Shown: piece after piece, positions 2,141-45,897 of the stretch
Layout: each line of letters starts with the position of its first letter
Position numbering within the stretch: the first letter of the stretch is position 1
Assembly: GCA_041650295.1 (NCBI GenBank)
Contig: JBAZLM010000004.1
Coordinates: 51,860 to 115,859, forward strand
DNA from: Candidatus Omnitrophota bacterium
Lineage (GTDB): Bacteria; Omnitrophota; Gorgyraeia; Gygaellales; Profunditerraquicolaceae
Reading direction: 5' to 3'
Length of the DNA stretch: 64,000 nt
Program-made: the position numbers and the translations under genes
Notes under the pieces: model-generated
Database searches by the model: none
Told to the model about the DNA's origin: nothing
Seen by the model: only the letters and a program-made list of their open reading frames with translations

Positions 2141-3541
2141 GTGAGAGTAAAGTCTGTTTTTAGTTGTTCCAATTGCGGATATCAATCGCCAAAATGGTTG
2201 GGTAAGTGTCCGGATTGTAATAGTTGGAATTCTTTTGTAGAAGAGGATTATGCTGCTCCCGCTTCTTCTGGGATAAAAGAAAGAGTTTCTTTATATAAAG
2301 ACGCACCTGTACTTTTAAAAGATGTAGTGGCTTGTGATGAAGATAGGATAAAAACTAATATTGTTGAGCTGGATCGGGTTTTAGGTGGTGGGATTGTTAA
2401 GGGTTCAGTAATTTTAATTGGTGGTGACCCTGGAGTTGGTAAGTCTACTATTTCGTTACAGGTTTCTAATCATTTAACTAAGCAAGGCATCGGCGTTCTT
2501 TATGTAAGCGGAGAAGAAAGCGTTGCGCAGACTAAATTACGCGCTAAACGTTTAGGTGAGGCCGGAACAGATAATCTTTATATTGTTAATCAAACGGATT
2601 TATCTTTAATCGTAGAGTATATAAAAAAATTAAAGCCGCAAGTTGTAATTATTGATTCAATTCAGGTAATTTTTGATTCTGGAATTAGTTCATCTCCAGG
2701 AAGTGTCAGTCAGGTTAGAGAATGTTCGGGGATTCTGACACAGCTCGCTAAAACTACCGGAACTTCAATTTTTATTATTGGCCATGTCACTAAAGAAGGT
2801 ACTTTAGCCGGTCCGCGGGTTTTAGAGCATATCGTAGATACAGTTTTATATTTTGAAGGCGATCGTTTTGCCATTTATCGGATCTTGCGGGCGGTAAAAA
2901 ATAGATTCGGTTCAACTAATGAAATTGGTGTATTTGAAATGGGATCGACTGGTCTATCGGAAGTTAAGAATCCGTCAGAGATTTTTCTCTCTGAGCGACC
3001 TAGTGATGTTTCCGGAACGATTGTTACTTCGATTCTAGAAGGCACACGTCCACTTTTGGTAGAGATTCAGTCGTTGGTTTCTCGCTCTAGCTTTGGCTAT
3101 GCACGTAGACGGGCGCAAGGTTTTGATTTTAATCGCTTGTCACTTTTGGTTGCTGTTTTAGAAAAGCGTATGGGCCTAGCTCTTGAGGCCGAAGATATTT
3201 TTATTAATGTTGCGGGTGGCATAAAAATTGAAGATCCCGCCGCAGATTTAGCAGTTTGTGCGGTAATTGCTTCAAGTTTTCGCGAGCAGGTAGTTTTACC
3301 TAAAACTGTAGTTTTAGGCGAAGTAGGATTAAGTGGTGAGATTCGCAGTATCTCTCAAGTGTTAACCCGCATTAATGAAGCAGAAAAGCTAGGTTTTAAA
3401 CATTGTATCTTGCCGAAAAATAGTGTTAAGAATATTAAATTGAAAAAATCAGAGATGGAGATTATTCCAGTTTCTACGTTGAAAGAGGCCCTAGACATTA
3501 TCTTAATATCATCTGCTAAATTGAATAGGGAAGGAGCATAA
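2141..3541 (+). CDS. radA: DNA repair protein RadA/Sms
   Basis: GTG start. N-terminal C4 zinc ribbon CSNCGYQSPKWLGKCPDCNSW, Walker A GDPGVGKST, the KNRFG motif and a Lon-protease-like C-terminal domain. Confidence 0.9.
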   Translation: MRVKSVFSCSNCGYQSPKWLGKCPDCNSWNSFVEEDYAAPASSGIKERVSLYKDAPVLLKDVVACDEDRIKTNIVELDRVLGGGIVKGSVILIGGDPGVGKSTISLQVSNHLTKQGIGVLYVSGEESVAQTKLRAKRLGEAGTDNLYIVNQTDLSLIVEYIKKLKPQVVIIDSIQVIFDSGISSSPGSVSQVRECSGILTQLAKTTGTSIFIIGHVTKEGTLAGPRVLEHIVDTVLYFEGDRFAIYRILRAVKNRFGSTNEIGVFEMGSTGLSEVKNPSEIFLSERPSDVSGTIVTSILEGTRPLLVEIQSLVSRSSFGYARRRAQGFDFNRLSLLVAVLEKRMGLALEAEDIFINVAGGIKIEDPAADLAVCAVIASSFREQVVLPKTVVLGEVGLSGEIRSISQVLTRINEAEKLGFKHCILPKNSVKNIKLKKSEMEIIPVSTLKEALDIILISSAKLNREGA

Positions 3542-4522
3542 ATGAATTTATTATTAGCACGGGTTTTATTTATCTTAGGTAGTATGGCGATTGGTTATCA
3601 GACAGTGGTGATTAATAGTTCTGGTTTAATTGGTATGGTGATTGGCGCGGCAATCGCCTTGCTGATGATTATGGCCGAAGCAGGATTACGTAAAGTTTCA
3701 GTGAGTGGATTATCGAGTGCGGTTTTTGGCTTAATCTTAGGTTTAATCATGGCTAAGTTGGTGGGGGATGCTTTTAGTATCGCACCTATCGATGCGTTAA
3801 TCCTTTCTAGAATTAGGGTGGGATTAACTTTAATTTTTTGCTATCTGGGTATGGTTATGGCTTTGCGCGGCAAAGATGAATTTAATATTATTATTCCTTA
3901 TGTGCGCCTGCGTAGACAAGATCAGGCTCAAGACGTAGTACTTTTAGATACTAGTGTAATTATAGACGGAAGAATTGTTGATCTTTGTAAGACACGTTTT
4001 TTAAGCGGAAAAATTATTATTCCAAAATTTGTTTTACGTGAATTACAGCAGATTGCTGACTCTACCGATCCGATTAAGCGCCAGAGGGGCAGACGAGGAC
4101 TAGAGATTCTGAATAACATTCAAAATGAACCGGGTATGGATATTACAATTCATGAACAAGATTTTACTGAGACTAGTGAAGTGGATGCTAAGTTAGTGTT
4201 GTTAGCTAAATTATTAGAGGCTAAAATTTTGACGGTTGATTTTAATTTAAATCGAGTGGCTAGCATTCAGGGAATTAAAGTTTTAAATATTAATGAGTTG
4301 GCCAACGCCTTAAAGCCGGTAGTTTTTCCTGGCGAAGAGATGCAGATTAAGTTAATCAAAGAAGGGAAAGAACATAATCAGGCAGTAGGTTACCTTGATG
4401 ATGGTACGATGGTGGTAGTGGAAGATGCACGCAGATTAATTGGCCAAGATGTTAAAGTAGCGGTAACTTCTGTATTGCAAACTCAAGCTGGTAGAATGAT
4501 CTTTACTAAAGTTGAGAAATAA
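3542..4522 (+). CDS. Membrane-anchored PIN/TRAM domain protein (YacL-like)
   Basis: Four predicted N-terminal TM helices, a PIN-like segment ([12 protein letters not shown]) and a C-terminal TRAM-like beta domain. It sits downstream of radA, as yacL does in Firmicutes. Confidence 0.6.
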
Positions 4523-35979: not shown

Positions 35980-36381
35980 GGGGGTGAAAGGGTTCGACTT
36001 GAGATGGTCGGATAAGAGTAGCATGCCGCGGATGTAAGGTTAGCCGCGTTAAAAATCCTTGCACAATCTAAACGCAAACACAAACGTGTTCAACCGTTTA
36101 GCACCAAAGGCAGCAATGCCTTTGATGCCTGCGGGCGTACAAGCCTTAGCGTTTAATTAAACGTTAAGCCTCTAGCCGTTTTTGCCTACGAAACGGATTA
36201 GGGCCTTAGTAGGATAGCTTCGTCAGGTTAGCCTTTGTGGATGAAGCGAGATTTTAAAGGCTGCTCCTTGCAAATCCTGTCTGTAGAAGTTGCAAGGTTA
36301 AGACAAATTACAAGGCTAAGCATGTAGTGACTTTTATTTGATTACTTAAGGACCCCGGTTCAATTCCGGGCACCTCCACCA
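35980..36381 (+). ncRNA. ssrA: tmRNA (ssrA)
   Basis: The 5' GGGGGUG pairs with the 3' CACCUCC including the G3:U wobble. The 3' tRNA-like domain is GGACCCCGGUUCAAUUCCGGGCACCUCCACCA with encoded CCA. It lies 7 nt after the smpB stop. An internal ORF-like tag frame runs 36074-36160. Confidence 0.85.
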
Positions 36382-43128: not shown

Positions 43129-43284
43129 TCTGTTGATATAATCAAAGCTCTTTAAGATAAGATTTTTGTAGGGATGTGATGGGGCGTGCCCCGTTACAAA
43201 CCAGAAGCTTAAAAAATTAAAGAGATAGATGTGGTGGGGGCGTGCCCCGTTGCATCTAAGAATCTTTAATTATAATAGATGCAA

Positions 43285-43359
43285 CGGGGCGTGGCTCAGT
43301 TTGGCTAGAGCGCCTGCTTTGGGAGCAGGAGGTCACAGGTTCAAGTCCTGTCGCCCCGA
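43285..43359 (+). tRNA. tRNA-Pro(TGG)
   Basis: Hand-folded. Acceptor is CGGGGCG/CGCCCCG. Anticodon stem is CCTGC/GCAGG with loop TTTGGGA. T arm is ACAGG-TTCAAGT-CCTGT. Discriminator is A and no CCA is encoded. Confidence 0.8.
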
Positions 43360-43373
43360 CAAAAATAATCAAT

Positions 43374-43447
43374 GCGCCTGTAGCTCAATTGGATAGAGCA
43401 CCTGCCTTCTAAGCCGGTTGTTGGCCGTTCGATTCGGCCCAGGCGCA
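43374..43447 (+). tRNA. tRNA-Arg(TCT)
   Basis: Acceptor is GCGCCTG/CAGGCGC. The D arm is nearly identical to E. coli argU. Anticodon loop is CTTCTAA with one U:C mismatch in the stem. T arm is GGCCG-TTCGATT-CGGCC. Confidence 0.7.
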
Positions 43448-43640
43448 TTAGAATTAGAGGGCCTACTTGCTCGCTGCGCTCGCAAGTACTGCGCTAGATA
43501 AAAGATTAGAGGTGATTGTTCGGCCCAGGCGCATTAAAATAAATAAAAGTGCTTGCCCTTGCTCGCTGTGCTCGCAAGGATTTCGCCGAATAAAAGATTT
43601 AAGGTGCTCAATTCTGCCCAGGCGCATTAAAATTTTAACC
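43430..43640 (+). repeat. Two degenerate tandem units of about 95 nt, each ending with a copy of the tRNA-Arg 3' end (GGCCCAGGCGCATTA) and each containing a GCTCGC-type hairpin
   Basis: The 3' end copy is GTTCGATTCGGCCCAGGCGCATTA in the tRNA, TGTTCGGCCCAGGCGCATTA in unit 1 and TTCTGCCCAGGCGCATTA in unit 2. The hairpin CTTGCTCGCTGYGCTCGCAAG is followed by ATAAAAGATT in both units. The two units are about 80% identical. Confidence 0.7.
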
Positions 43641-43655
43641 AAAATTAATAAGTTT

Positions 43656-44873
43656 ATGAAAAATTGGCAAAAAATATTTAAAATAGTTGTTATAGTAGTT
43701 ATATTGTTTAGTTTGTTTTATGTATTTTTAATGCTAGAAGCTAAGCATTTAATTATTAAAGTAATCTCAGATGGTAGTGGTCGCAAAACTACGATTGACA
43801 AGCTAGAAATCAAGCCTCCGTTAAATTTAGAGATAAAAAATTTAGAGATTCAAGGCGTGTTTAAGGCCAGCTACATTTATTTATCACCTAGTATTCCCAA
43901 TCTTTTAAGAGGCAGAGTAGCATTAAATAAAGTAAGAATTTTTAATCCCCAGCTTACTTATCAGCGTATTCCACCTCCGGTTATTGTACAAGATAGTACT
44001 GCAGTAGTAGAGTTTCCTCAGGCTGAGGTAGCTGTGCCGGTTGTAACGGCACCTGCTCCTGTTAGCCAGGATAATAAAGTTTTTCCTATAATTATAAAAA
44101 GCTTAAAGGTAAAATCTGGTTTATTAAATTTTATCGATTCTACAGCAACTGCCGGTAGCATTAAAATTATAATTAAAGACATCCAATTTTATATTACAAA
44201 TTTATCTACAGTTAATATTAATGCTGTTAGTAACTTTAATTTAAGGGCAAGTATCTCTTGGAATACCGGAGAGCCGGATGGTAGATTATTTTTGCAGGGC
44301 TGGGCAAATTTTGGCAAGAAAGATGTTTTAGCTAAATTAAAGATTGAAGATATCGACGCGATTGTTTTTTATCCATATTATTCAACCTGGGTTAATTTAG
44401 AAAAAGCGCGGATTGATAAAGCTAAACTTAATTTCAGCAGCGATATTAAAGGCGTGAATAATAATGTGGATGCGGTTTGTCATTTAGAGTTAATTGATAT
44501 GGTGCGCAAAGTGCGGCCTCCGCAGGAACCGCAGCAAAAAGCAGAGAGACTAACTGATGCAGTATTAGATATGTTCAAATCGATGAATCAGGGAAAAGTA
44601 ATTTTAGATTTTACTTTACATACAAAAATGGATCAACCAGCTTTTGGTTTTGCTAATATTAAATCTGCTTTTGAAGGAAAAATTATGGAAGGCAAGGCAA
44701 GGGCTGGATTGCGGCCGCAAGATATGCTATTATGGCCTGGTAAGTTAGTGCAAAGTGGGGTAAAGAGCGGAATAGATCTTTCTAATGCGGTAGTGGATGG
44801 CGCAGTAGCTTTAGGTAATGGAATAAAAAAGTTTTTTGAAAGAACAATAAATACTCCGGCTTCGGAGAATTAA
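43656..44873 (+). CDS. Membrane-anchored AsmA/DUF748-like protein
   Basis: One N-terminal TM then a beta-rich periplasmic region with the repeating pattern typical of AsmA-like proteins. The ORF-track start at 43467 extends through the tRNA-derived repeats and was rejected. Confidence 0.5.
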   Translation: MKNWQKIFKIVVIVVILFSLFYVFLMLEAKHLIIKVISDGSGRKTTIDKLEIKPPLNLEIKNLEIQGVFKASYIYLSPSIPNLLRGRVALNKVRIFNPQLTYQRIPPPVIVQDSTAVVEFPQAEVAVPVVTAPAPVSQDNKVFPIIIKSLKVKSGLLNFIDSTATAGSIKIIIKDIQFYITNLSTVNINAVSNFNLRASISWNTGEPDGRLFLQGWANFGKKDVLAKLKIEDIDAIVFYPYYSTWVNLEKARIDKAKLNFSSDIKGVNNNVDAVCHLELIDMVRKVRPPQEPQQKAERLTDAVLDMFKSMNQGKVILDFTLHTKMDQPAFGFANIKSAFEGKIMEGKARAGLRPQDMLLWPGKLVQSGVKSGIDLSNAVVDGAVALGNGIKKFFERTINTPASEN

Positions 44874-44881
44874 TTTTATTT

Positions 44882-45046
44882 TTAATTTATGGTGGCTGTA
44901 GCTCAACTTTAGCGAGCAGACAACTTACGGCAGCGTGAGCAACGTAAGTTGTAGGCGAAGCCGTCTGCGAGCTAATCCCGTGTTTACGAGAAAATTCCAG
45001 AGAATTTTCGAGTGGTTTAACACGGGAGAAAGAGTATTAATTGTTC
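44882..45046 (+). repeat. Degenerate duplicate of the tRNA-His 5' half (27-nt direct repeat TTAATTTATGGTGGCTGTAGCTCAACT at 44882-44908 and 45047-45073) followed by a 138-nt hairpin-rich insert
   Basis: Identical 27-mers, the second of which begins the intact tRNA-His. The insert contains ACAACTTACG-N13-CGTAAGTTGT and CCCGTGTT...AACACGGG inverted repeats. Confidence 0.7.
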
Positions 45047-45055
45047 TTAATTTAT

Positions 45056-45133
45056 GGTGGCTGTAGCTCAACTGGTTAGAGCTTCTGATTGTGGTTCAGA
45101 AGGTTGCGGGATCGTGCCCCGTCAGCCACCCCA
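45056..45133 (+). tRNA. tRNA-His(GTG) with genome-encoded G-1 and CCA
   Basis: Very close to E. coli tRNA-His (GGTGGCTGTAGCTCA...). Anticodon stem is TCTGA/TCAGA with loop TTGTGGT. The 3' end is AGCCACCCCA. Confidence 0.85.
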
Positions 45134-45168
45134 GTTTTTTAGCTTGTTTTTATTTAAAGGAGATAGTG

Positions 45169-45897
45169 ATGAAAATTAAAATATTAGTAGTTTTGTTTTT
45201 TGTGGCGTTTTTGAGCGCCAATAGCTATGGGCAGGATGAAAAGGATAAGATAAATAAAAATTTAACTAATCTGCCAGCTACTGCAGCAGCCAGTATTATT
45301 ACTTGTACCGGTGGTCAATATTTGGTTAACGGTAAATGTGAATGTCGTAATAATTTTTATTGGAATGAGCGCCTAAAGCAGTGTCGCCCGATAAGAACCT
45401 GTCCCCCGGGTCAGCATTTAGATCGCGATAAAGATGATTGTGTTGCGAATTGTACAGGCGGTCAGATTATTATTAATGGTAAATGTGAATGTAGGAATAA
45501 TTTTTATTGGAATGAACGTTTAAAACAGTGTCGCCCAGTTAGAACTTGTCCTCCCGGTCAGCATTTAGATCGCGATAAAGATGATTGTGTTGCTGATTGT
45601 ACTGGCGGCCAGATTCTGGTTAATGGTCAATGTCAATGTCGCAATAATTTCTATTGGAATGAGCGCCTAAAGCAGTGTCGCCCGATAAGAACCTGTCCCC
45701 CAGGCCAGGATTTTAATAGGGAACTTGATGACTGCCGTAGTGCTTCCGGCAATGTCGTTCGTCCTCCGGTTCCTCTAGAAAAAAAGCCTTTAGTTGCTAG
45801 TGGCGCAAGACAGATGCCATCGAATCCTTTAGAAAAAGCTGTATTAGTTTCTGAAGATGTTAATCGTCCGCCAGATCCATTGGAAAGAAATCGTTAA
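45169..45897 (+). CDS. Secreted cysteine-rich tandem-repeat protein (three 49-aa repeats with six Cys each, plus a Pro-rich tail)
   Basis: SD AAAGGAGATAG. Signal peptide MKIKILVVLFFVAFLSANSYGQ. Repeat is CTGGQ(Y/I)LVNGKCECRNNFYWNERLKQCRP(I/V)RTCPPGQHLDRDKDDCVA(N/D). The ORF-track start at 45091 overlaps tRNA-His and was rejected. Confidence 0.75.
   Translation: MKIKILVVLFFVAFLSANSYGQDEKDKINKNLTNLPATAAASIITCTGGQYLVNGKCECRNNFYWNERLKQCRPIRTCPPGQHLDRDKDDCVANCTGGQIIINGKCECRNNFYWNERLKQCRPVRTCPPGQHLDRDKDDCVADCTGGQILVNGQCQCRNNFYWNERLKQCRPIRTCPPGQDFNRELDDCRSASGNVVRPPVPLEKKPLVASGARQMPSNPLEKAVLVSEDVNRPPDPLERNR
45304..45744 (+). repeat. Three tandem 147-bp coding repeats within the cysteine-rich protein gene
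   Basis: Units at 45304-45450, 45451-45597 and 45598-45744. Units 1 and 2 are nearly identical at nucleotide level over about 100 nt. Unit 3 diverges at its 3' end. Confidence 0.85.

Follow-up and report, generated by a model that had tools for sequence, protein, structure and literature searches.

Peritrophin-A domains carry six cysteines with the spacing CX13-20CX5-6CX9-19CX10-14CX4-14C, paired 1-3/2-6/4-5, and Kunitz/BPTI domains follow the spacing C-x8-C-x15-C-x7-C-x12-C-x3-C. The cysteine-rich domains (CRDs) of tumor necrosis factor receptors (TNFRs) span about 40 residues and contain six cysteines in three disulfides, distributed over an A1 module with one disulfide and a B2 module with two (PMC11603874). 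Bacterial proteins contain shorter four-cysteine repeats of 28-34 residues (C-x-G-G-x-x-W-x-G-x-x-C-x-C-x-x-G-x-x-W-N-x-x-x-C), which are partly covered by the Pfam family DUF5874 (PF19202). Here we describe a gene in a 64,000-nucleotide (nt) stretch of a Candidatus Omnitrophota genome (assembly GCA_041650295.1, contig JBAZLM010000004.1, positions 51,860 to 115,859), hereafter the window. The gene encodes a protein of 242 residues built on three tandem six-cysteine units of 49 residues. The product is best filed as a member of an uncurated bacterial family related to DUF5874-type repeats. The protein may act outside the cytoplasm as a disulfide-stabilized rod serving as a multivalent binder, adhesin or spacer. 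We give this statement as a whole about an even chance, its structural and genetic part being much more secure than its functional part.

The gene is the single plus-strand open reading frame (ORF) of its region, and the opposite strand contains no ORF of 40 or more residues inside it (Table 1). It is a real gene, because the pattern of non-synonymous to synonymous change (dN/dS) shows purifying selection on the repeat units; a ribosome-binding site, a signal peptide and homologs are also present. Its G+C content of 0.41, compared with 0.37 for the window, is unremarkable. No paralog is present within the window, and with 7.4% cysteine the product is the most cysteine-rich ORF there.

The protein begins with a signal peptide, followed by a linker, the three units (U1, U2 and U3) and a C-terminal tail. 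The core of the signal peptide is predicted to be helical (residues 4-17), and cleavage probably occurs before Q22 (G21↓Q22). This Sec-type signal would carry the protein beyond the inner membrane, as the initial annotation proposed in calling it secreted, and the homologs have a signal peptide or a lipobox as well. The linker is not conserved among homologs in either length or sequence. All 18 cysteines sit in the units, six in each, and every unit has a C-x-C motif. The tail contains nine prolines in 50 residues (18%) and three P-L-E-[KR] motifs (PVPLEK, SNPLEK and PDPLER); a related tail is found solely in the closest relative, P0007.

The three units form a perfect tandem in codon register. 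Tandem Repeats Finder detects one array with a period of 147, 0% indels and a score of 593, and a repeat search places the three copies at an exact spacing of 147 + 147 nt. Tandem arrangement, six cysteines per unit and proline-rich tail had all been described correctly. The cysteine pattern is C-x10-C-x-C-x12-C-x5-C-x12-C-x3, which totals 49 residues; the third gap had been given as x11, which would sum to 48. The units are also not near-identical, as had been stated. U1 and U2 share 84.4% nt identity (23 differences in 147 nt), U1 and U3 78%, and U2 and U3 75%.

Over the 46-codon core from C1 to C6, the units differ from each other by 13-16 synonymous and 4-10 non-synonymous codons, with 13 and 4, respectively, between U1 and U2. 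The Nei-Gojobori method yields synonymous distances (dS) of 0.8-1.7, near saturation, and dN/dS values of 0.07-0.14. Thus, the triplication is old and each copy is under purifying selection. Recent duplication of the units is rejected by the same dS values, and the recent expansion first suggested falls with it. The units of the homolog L009 show a comparable selection regime. In L010, dS is too saturated to be estimated, and 20-21 synonymous differences stand against 5-10 non-synonymous ones.

U1 is a mosaic of the other two units. Its positions 55-104 are identical to U3 over 50 nt (45358-45407 = 45652-45701), a match reached in none of 20,000 permutations (p < 5e-5). At positions 106-143, it matches U2 without a difference over 38 nt (45409-45446 = 45556-45593; permutation p = 0.012). 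The informative sites in U1 flip cleanly from agreement with U3 to agreement with U2. This pattern is the signature of past gene-conversion tracts, unlike that of recent duplication. The window units date from old duplications, and each of them is conserved. The gene conversion initially proposed is partly supported, in the form of past local tracts.

The initial annotation also raised the possibility that the array is an assembly artifact. Arrays of this family often end at contig ends, and one of them lies in two halves on separate contigs of a single metagenome-assembled genome (MAG), as described below. The window units, however, differ from each other at 23-37 of 147 nt (16-25% of positions), so each contains unique k-mers, and the identical 242-residue product is recorded on more than one contig, including ENA ERZ27247363 k141_659201. 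Collapse or expansion of the window array is unlikely for these reasons. The broader proposal, that the three-unit array is artifactual or the ORF not a gene, is extremely improbable given the codon-level selection, the ribosome-binding site, the signal peptide and the homologs.

The AlphaFold2 model of the full-length protein reaches a predicted local distance difference test (pLDDT) score of 80-90 over the repeats; the linker and the tail score below 50. A two-unit model built from 11 sequences has a mean pLDDT of 84 and the same strand pattern. In both models, each unit consists of six short strands that form three hairpins (5-8/11-14, 18-21/26-29 and 37-40/45-48 in unit numbering). Each hairpin has one cysteine four residues ahead of its first strand (positions 1, 14 and 33) and another at the second position of its second strand (positions 12, 27 and 46). 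Because the three hairpins share this identical geometry, the models suggest the disulfide pairs C1-C2, C3-C4 and C5-C6, or nine disulfides in all. This pairing appears to be backed independently by two patterns in homologs. In L009, L010, L030 and L031, the last unit is truncated and is missing hairpin 1 along with both of its cysteines, C1 and C2. P0020 and P0009, which are distant relatives, consist of single hairpins with two cysteines each, arranged in strings. The prediction of structure and connectivity recommended at the outset thus gives three β-hairpins per unit, each apparently pinned by one disulfide. It is in line with the disulfide-rich, extracellular type of module first proposed, the nearest solved classes being TNFR-like, EGF-like and furin-like.

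Instead of forming disulfides, the cysteines could bind metal in thiolate clusters, as in metallothioneins. The high cysteine content and the C-x-C motif of every unit are compatible with metal binding, which would suit anoxic hosts, and many source samples seem, from their record titles, to be anoxic sediment, groundwater or digester material. But the protein is exported, and the number of cysteines per module is always even, cysteines being lost in pairs with a hairpin. The conserved glycine, proline and aromatic pattern and the confident β-hairpin prediction are typical of disulfide-rich modules, and no His/Cys cluster geometry is seen. We regard metal binding as very improbable.

Unit positions 1-28 are homologous to the bacterial four-cysteine repeats. 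In hhalign, they match the repeats of P0019, P0021, P0024 and P0010 with 98.5% probability (E = 2.6e-15), in a comparison set drawn from matches of the unit profile. Those repeats lack the third hairpin. Hairpins 1 and 2 would represent a four-cysteine module that is widespread in bacterial surface proteins and lipoproteins, and hairpin 3 (C-P-P-G-Q-x-F-D-x-x-x-D-x-C) a two-cysteine module that also occurs alone in strings. The modular grammar would be one two-hairpin module plus one one-hairpin module per 49-residue unit. Lipoproteins from Myxococcota contain both four-cysteine repeats and bona fide units of 49-52 residues within the same proteins. Other proteins with related modules carry adhesin-type domains, DUF11 and CARDB in P0019 and Lcl_C and TSP_3 in P0020.

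DUF5874 itself does not match the window protein at E <= 1, and it matches two of the nine family members at E <= 0.01. NCBIfam also gives no match at E <= 1, including the GCG_CRPN prefix-to-repeats family (NF047412). Within the family, NF047412 is detected in the distant P0009 only, with 21.6 bits and below its cut-off of 24. No enzymatic, phage or defence family matches the window protein. A literature search for DUF5874, GCG_CRPN, or Omnitrophota together with cysteine-rich repeats found no paper.

Pfam TNFR_c6 (PF00020) scores 35.9 bits against a cut-off of 29.4 over the whole protein, by summing partial matches to profile positions 1-27 of 39. One could take the protein for a true member of the TNFR superfamily, which would bind a trimeric TNF/C1q-like ligand as a soluble receptor or as a decoy. 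Solved TNFR ectodomains are the best fold matches, without significant structural superposition on them. The window unit is longer than a CRD and has the spacing x10, x1, x12, x5, x12, x3, in which no B2 module can be placed. It is composed of three equivalent one-pair hairpins, and the likeness is to the single-disulfide A1 module. The protein is also bacterial and soluble, with neither a membrane nor a signaling part, and in the Pfam-annotated neighborhoods no family member had a TNF/C1q-like gene next to it. A true TNFR-type receptor is quite improbable.

The second partial match is to CBM_14 (PF01607), with 24.7 bits against a cut-off of 22.1. It raises the possibility of a chitin- or polysaccharide-binding lectin related to peritrophin-A, with an aromatic N-F-Y-W-N face and tandem units that raise avidity. 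Seven of the nine family members match CBM_14. Peritrophin-A has a C-terminal hairpin to which hairpin 3 (C-P-P-G-Q-x-F-D-x5-C) is similar, the two having C-P-x-G-x-x-F-D-x5-C in common. A eukaryotic peritrophin/mucin-like protein, P0018, was matched over exactly unit positions 30-48, and the tyrosine, the tryptophan and two asparagines are invariant in every unit aligned. However, no CBM_14 stretch is significant alone, and the best covers profile positions 21-46 of 53. No cyclic register of the unit fits the peritrophin-A spacing, given the x1 and x3 gaps, and the peritrophin-A pairing does not fit either. No carbohydrate-binding module structure was found among the fold matches. We consider such a lectin unlikely.

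Each unit might instead be one inhibitory head of a multi-headed protease inhibitor, or a toxin-like, disulfide-knotted domain of the Kunitz or TIL type. A sequence search of the PDB returned the third Kunitz domain of TFPI with E = 0.21 for the single sequence and 0.036 for the profile, in a partial alignment, and RANK with E of about 7. The unit neither follows the Kunitz/BPTI spacing nor gives a significant sequence match, and Pfam reports no Kunitz match to the window protein. An inhibitor or toxin of this kind is improbable.

Foldseek matches include the cysteine-rich region of the insulin receptor, LRP2 and the EGF arrays of Pfs25, with E >= 1e-3 and TM-scores (template modeling) of <= 0.2. 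The window protein shares with furin-like, insulin-receptor and EGFR cysteine-rich regions and with EGF arrays a predicted rod-like stacking of disulfide-closed β-fingers. It differs from them in cysteine spacing and has no Pfam EGF or furin-like match. The predicted fold and mode of action would be those of disulfide-pinned β-hairpin ladders as a general class. Assignment to TNFR, peritrophin-A or Kunitz fails because the defining features, respectively A1 plus B2 within about 40 residues, the cysteine register, and the Kunitz spacing or match, are absent. The initial annotation could not place the repeat in a family, and indeed no curated family cleanly claims it, the TNFR_c6 and CBM_14 scores being partial and summed.

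The family is rare. A protein-cluster search found nine matches only among 5.8 billion clusters, and full-length homologs have E values from 5e-75 to 8e-16. A unit-profile search of 1.84 billion representatives returned 64 proteins at E <= 1e-3, of which 14 reach E <= 1e-10. The search of other genomes for the repeat consensus, proposed at the outset, was carried out as DNA scans and identified 18 genome loci and 23 metagenome loci (about 40 in total) in several phyla, with no viral contig among them. The MAG labels place the hosts in Omnitrophota, Gammaproteobacteria (Porticoccaceae and Rhodocyclaceae), Geobacter, Syntrophorhabdaceae, Nitrospirota and Myxococcota. The phyla represented are Omnitrophota, Proteobacteria, Desulfobacterota, Nitrospirota and Myxococcota. 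The loci range in G+C content from 0.38 to 0.69, yet their units are 50-70% identical across hosts. Many source samples are, by their record titles, apparently anoxic sediment, groundwater or digester communities.

The architecture is constant. A signal peptide or lipobox for export comes first, then a disordered linker, which is long in the relatives, and finally 1 to at least 5 units. Homologs have leaders that terminate either at an A-x-A↓Q-type site or at a lipobox (for example LTGC, FTGC or LSAC). The unit consensus behind the export signal is C-[TS]-G-G-x(6-8)-C-x-C-x-x-N-[FY]-Y-W-N-x5-C-R-P-x-x-x-C-x-P-x(9)-D-x-C, and each of the three window units has the residues of all invariant columns in a 15-unit alignment. 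In Myxococcota lipoproteins of at least 650-940 residues, several of them cut by contig ends, the C-terminal part is made up of the units, and the remainder contains about 20 more divergent cysteine hairpin modules and proline-rich or acidic linkers. A single-unit lipoprotein from a Nitrospira MAG (P0014; L019 636-1436) has an extra C-terminal domain of about 140 residues without a Pfam match, which would be a different fusion partner for the unit.

Units cluster by lineage, and loci within a lineage share flanking genes but vary in unit number. The comparison of copy number that had been suggested thus reveals orthologous loci with 1, 2, 3 or at least 5 units. Genes with an identical MKNVFF...TGC lipoprotein leader contain one, two and three units in L018, P0006 and L026, respectively. 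The MKKALII lineage has one, three and at least five units in P0013, L029 and L008; the MKSWLRA lineage has three in L004 and one each in L038, P0015 and L042; and the MLKKII lineage has two in L005 and one in L040 and P0012. The window gene has three units and its closest relative P0007 one, with leader and tail common to both. The nt identity of units inside single genes ranges from 70% to 99% across the family, which indicates that both old and very recent expansions exist. In one MAG (JBAYLJ01), contig L012 ends (3237-3698) and contig L007 begins (1-510) within a unit, and these units are near-identical. The two contigs appear to carry the halves of a single gene of five or more units, a split indicating that the arrays of this family break short-read assemblies.

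We propose the following model. After Sec export, the mature protein of about 221 residues would fold outside the cytoplasm into an elongated rod with nine disulfides. Each unit would be a super-module of three short β-hairpins with one disulfide each, and would display one invariant patch (N-x-Y-W-N, R-P and P-G). The result would be a trivalent protein, periplasmic or exposed on the cell surface, that serves as a binder, adhesin or spacer. The protein is most likely a multivalent binder, adhesin or spacer and not an enzyme. Anchoring may differ by lineage, through an N-terminal lipid and linker, in a soluble form, or, in the window protein, through the C-terminal proline-rich P-L-E-[KR] tail. 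Recombination between units would alter array length and hence valency.

Several points weigh against this model. The disulfide pairing is deduced from strand geometry and module-loss patterns, and the models were built on shallow alignments of 9-11 sequences. Many hosts come from anoxic habitats, where disulfide formation is assumed. Lineages share no conserved gene neighborhood from which a partner or pathway could be deduced. Finally, some single-unit alleles could be collapsed assemblies, and many arrays stop at contig ends.

A more far-reaching version would make the family horizontally spread TNFR/peritrophin-like disulfide-ladder lectins or adhesins. Recombination would tune their unit number as a contingency-type switch of length and avidity, and they would share ancestry with eukaryotic TNFR A1, peritrophin or EGF-type modules. 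We judge this version distinctly unlikely. Should the multivalent-rod reading be correct, these exported, disulfide-rich repeat proteins would constitute an uncurated family, found in distantly related and mostly uncultured bacteria with genomic G+C contents from 37% to 69%, and the reading would provide a handle for annotating these proteins. The family would also offer a small, tractable model for the concerted evolution of coding repeats. In Omnitrophota, whose cell-cell interactions currently attract interest, it would supply a candidate binder at the surface or in the periplasm. The finding alone opens no long-standing question.

Table 1. Coordinates of the gene, its parts and adjoining features (window numbering, except for the proline-rich partner, which is numbered within each locus)
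Feature	Coordinates	Strand	Basis and remarks
tRNA-His(GTG)	45057..45133	+	ARAGORN and Rfam; ends 35 nt before ATG
Ribosome-binding site AGGAG	45158..45162	+	6 nt 5' of ATG; seen directly in sequence
Coding sequence, 242 aa + stop	45169..45897	+	ORF and translation (ATG at 45169, stop at 45895-45897); homologs in several phyla; dN/dS 0.07-0.14 between units
Signal peptide MKIKILVVLFFVAFLSANSYG, 21 aa (predicted)	45169..45231	+	Basic N-region, hydrophobic core, S/G at -3/-1
Linker between signal peptide and repeats, 24 aa	45232..45303	+	Mostly disordered; pLDDT <50 for residues 19-41
Repeat unit 1 (U1), 49 aa, CTGGQYLVNGKCECRNNFYWNERLKQCRPIRTCPPGQHLDRDKDDCVAN	45304..45450	+	Three predicted β-hairpins, pLDDT 80-90; mosaic
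Repeat unit 2 (U2), 49 aa	45451..45597	+	84.4% nt and 90% aa identity to U1 over the full 49 aa
Repeat unit 3 (U3), 49 aa	45598..45744	+	Most divergent; last hairpin and end differ (QDFNRELDDCRSA)
C-terminal tail, 50 aa	45745..45894	+	Predicted disordered; pLDDT <50 for residues 200-230
Proline-rich partner, L006	5864-6175	+	
Proline-rich partner, L018	5437-5757	+	
Proline-rich partner, L026	2338-2658	+	
Proline-rich partner, L008	1814-2128	-	
Proline-rich partner, L029	1580-1894	-	

The gene lies directly 3' of tRNA-His, as first noted. Its neighbors are of housekeeping or envelope type. Upstream are queC/E/F, fumarase, RNase PH, Ham1 and DUF748 genes, and the downstream neighbors encode a DUF3313 lipoprotein, an M15 peptidase, CarB and UDG. 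The proteins encoded in the flanks match NCBI entries of a Candidatus Omnitrophota MAG exactly, and ENA contig k141_659201 is 201 kb long. In L048, the closest genome found through DUF3313 (85% identity), the order DUF3313-CarB-UDG is kept, and a cupin gene lies upstream in place of tRNA-His and the cysteine-repeat gene. The gene is thus lineage-specific at this place.

In a scan of 21 related loci, no tRNA adjoins the family gene directly, and tRNA-SeC occurs 1.4-7 kb upstream in one lineage only. The adjacency to tRNA-His is incidental and not a family trait. A tRNA-linked mobile island was considered and rejected, with no adjacent tRNA in the 21 loci, no viral contigs and no PHROG or PADLOC match. 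The initial description of a tRNA-rich, repeat-rich island is accurate as such, but no evidence ties the island to the gene. The lineage with tRNA-SeC is the MLKKII lineage, in which the gene lies downstream of this tRNA (L005 1009-8001; L040 1493-3001). About 7 kb of small ORFs without Pfam matches and AbiEii separate the two in L005, and only about 1.4 kb in L040. This arrangement may reflect an insertion at tRNA-SeC.

An all-against-all BLAST of flanking ORFs, in search of conserved partner genes, revealed synteny within lineages only, with one exception. In three proteobacterial lineages, a gene for a secreted proline-rich protein of about 105 residues adjoins the cysteine-repeat gene. These proteins are 46-65% identical between lineages and share the segment KPAEKPQATSNRDRVSV[ST]GYG.DPGE.TQERPNPLD. 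The L006 copy has no Pfam match, and the window contains no homolog. The RPNPLD motif of the partner recalls the P-x-P-L-E-[KR] motif of the window tail; homology to the tail was rejected, the similarity not being significant.

Several other features of the window were observed. A 33-nt direct repeat (94% identity; 44876-44908 and 45041-45073) comprises the 15 nt 5' of tRNA-His and its first 18 nt. The 132-nt segment between the two copies folds unusually well (z = -3.6), and the whole (44876-45073) looks like an insertion or partial tRNA duplication. A known RNA in this structured insert was sought and rejected: Rfam gave nothing at E <= 1, and the window contains no further copy of the insert. 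Further upstream (43429-43634), there are two additional copies of the tRNA-Arg 3' end (TTCGGCCCAGGCGCATTA) at intervals of about 90 nt, accompanied by a 49-nt direct repeat (43466 and 43558). A mechanical ORF (43467-44873) has its start within these repeats; the DUF748 gene as called starts at about 43656 and, at 405 residues, is shorter than this ORF. Just 5' of tRNA-Pro, the palindrome GGGGCGTGCCCC and its flanks are repeated twice, 56 nt apart (43175-43279). A sub-threshold Rfam match to the Y-RNA-like YrlA (43307-43430; 34.9 bits against a gathering score of 69) spans tRNA-Pro and tRNA-Arg and is probably a tRNA-like artifact.

The transfer-messenger RNA (35980-36381) encodes an unusually long tag of 28 residues, ANTNVFNRLAPKAAMPLMPAGVQALAFN, which ends in AFN and not in the common LAA. 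Between 30 and 64 kb, nearly all ORFs of at least 100 residues lie on the plus strand, and the GC skew is about +0.2 almost throughout the window. Together, ORF orientation and GC skew constitute a strong leading-strand bias.

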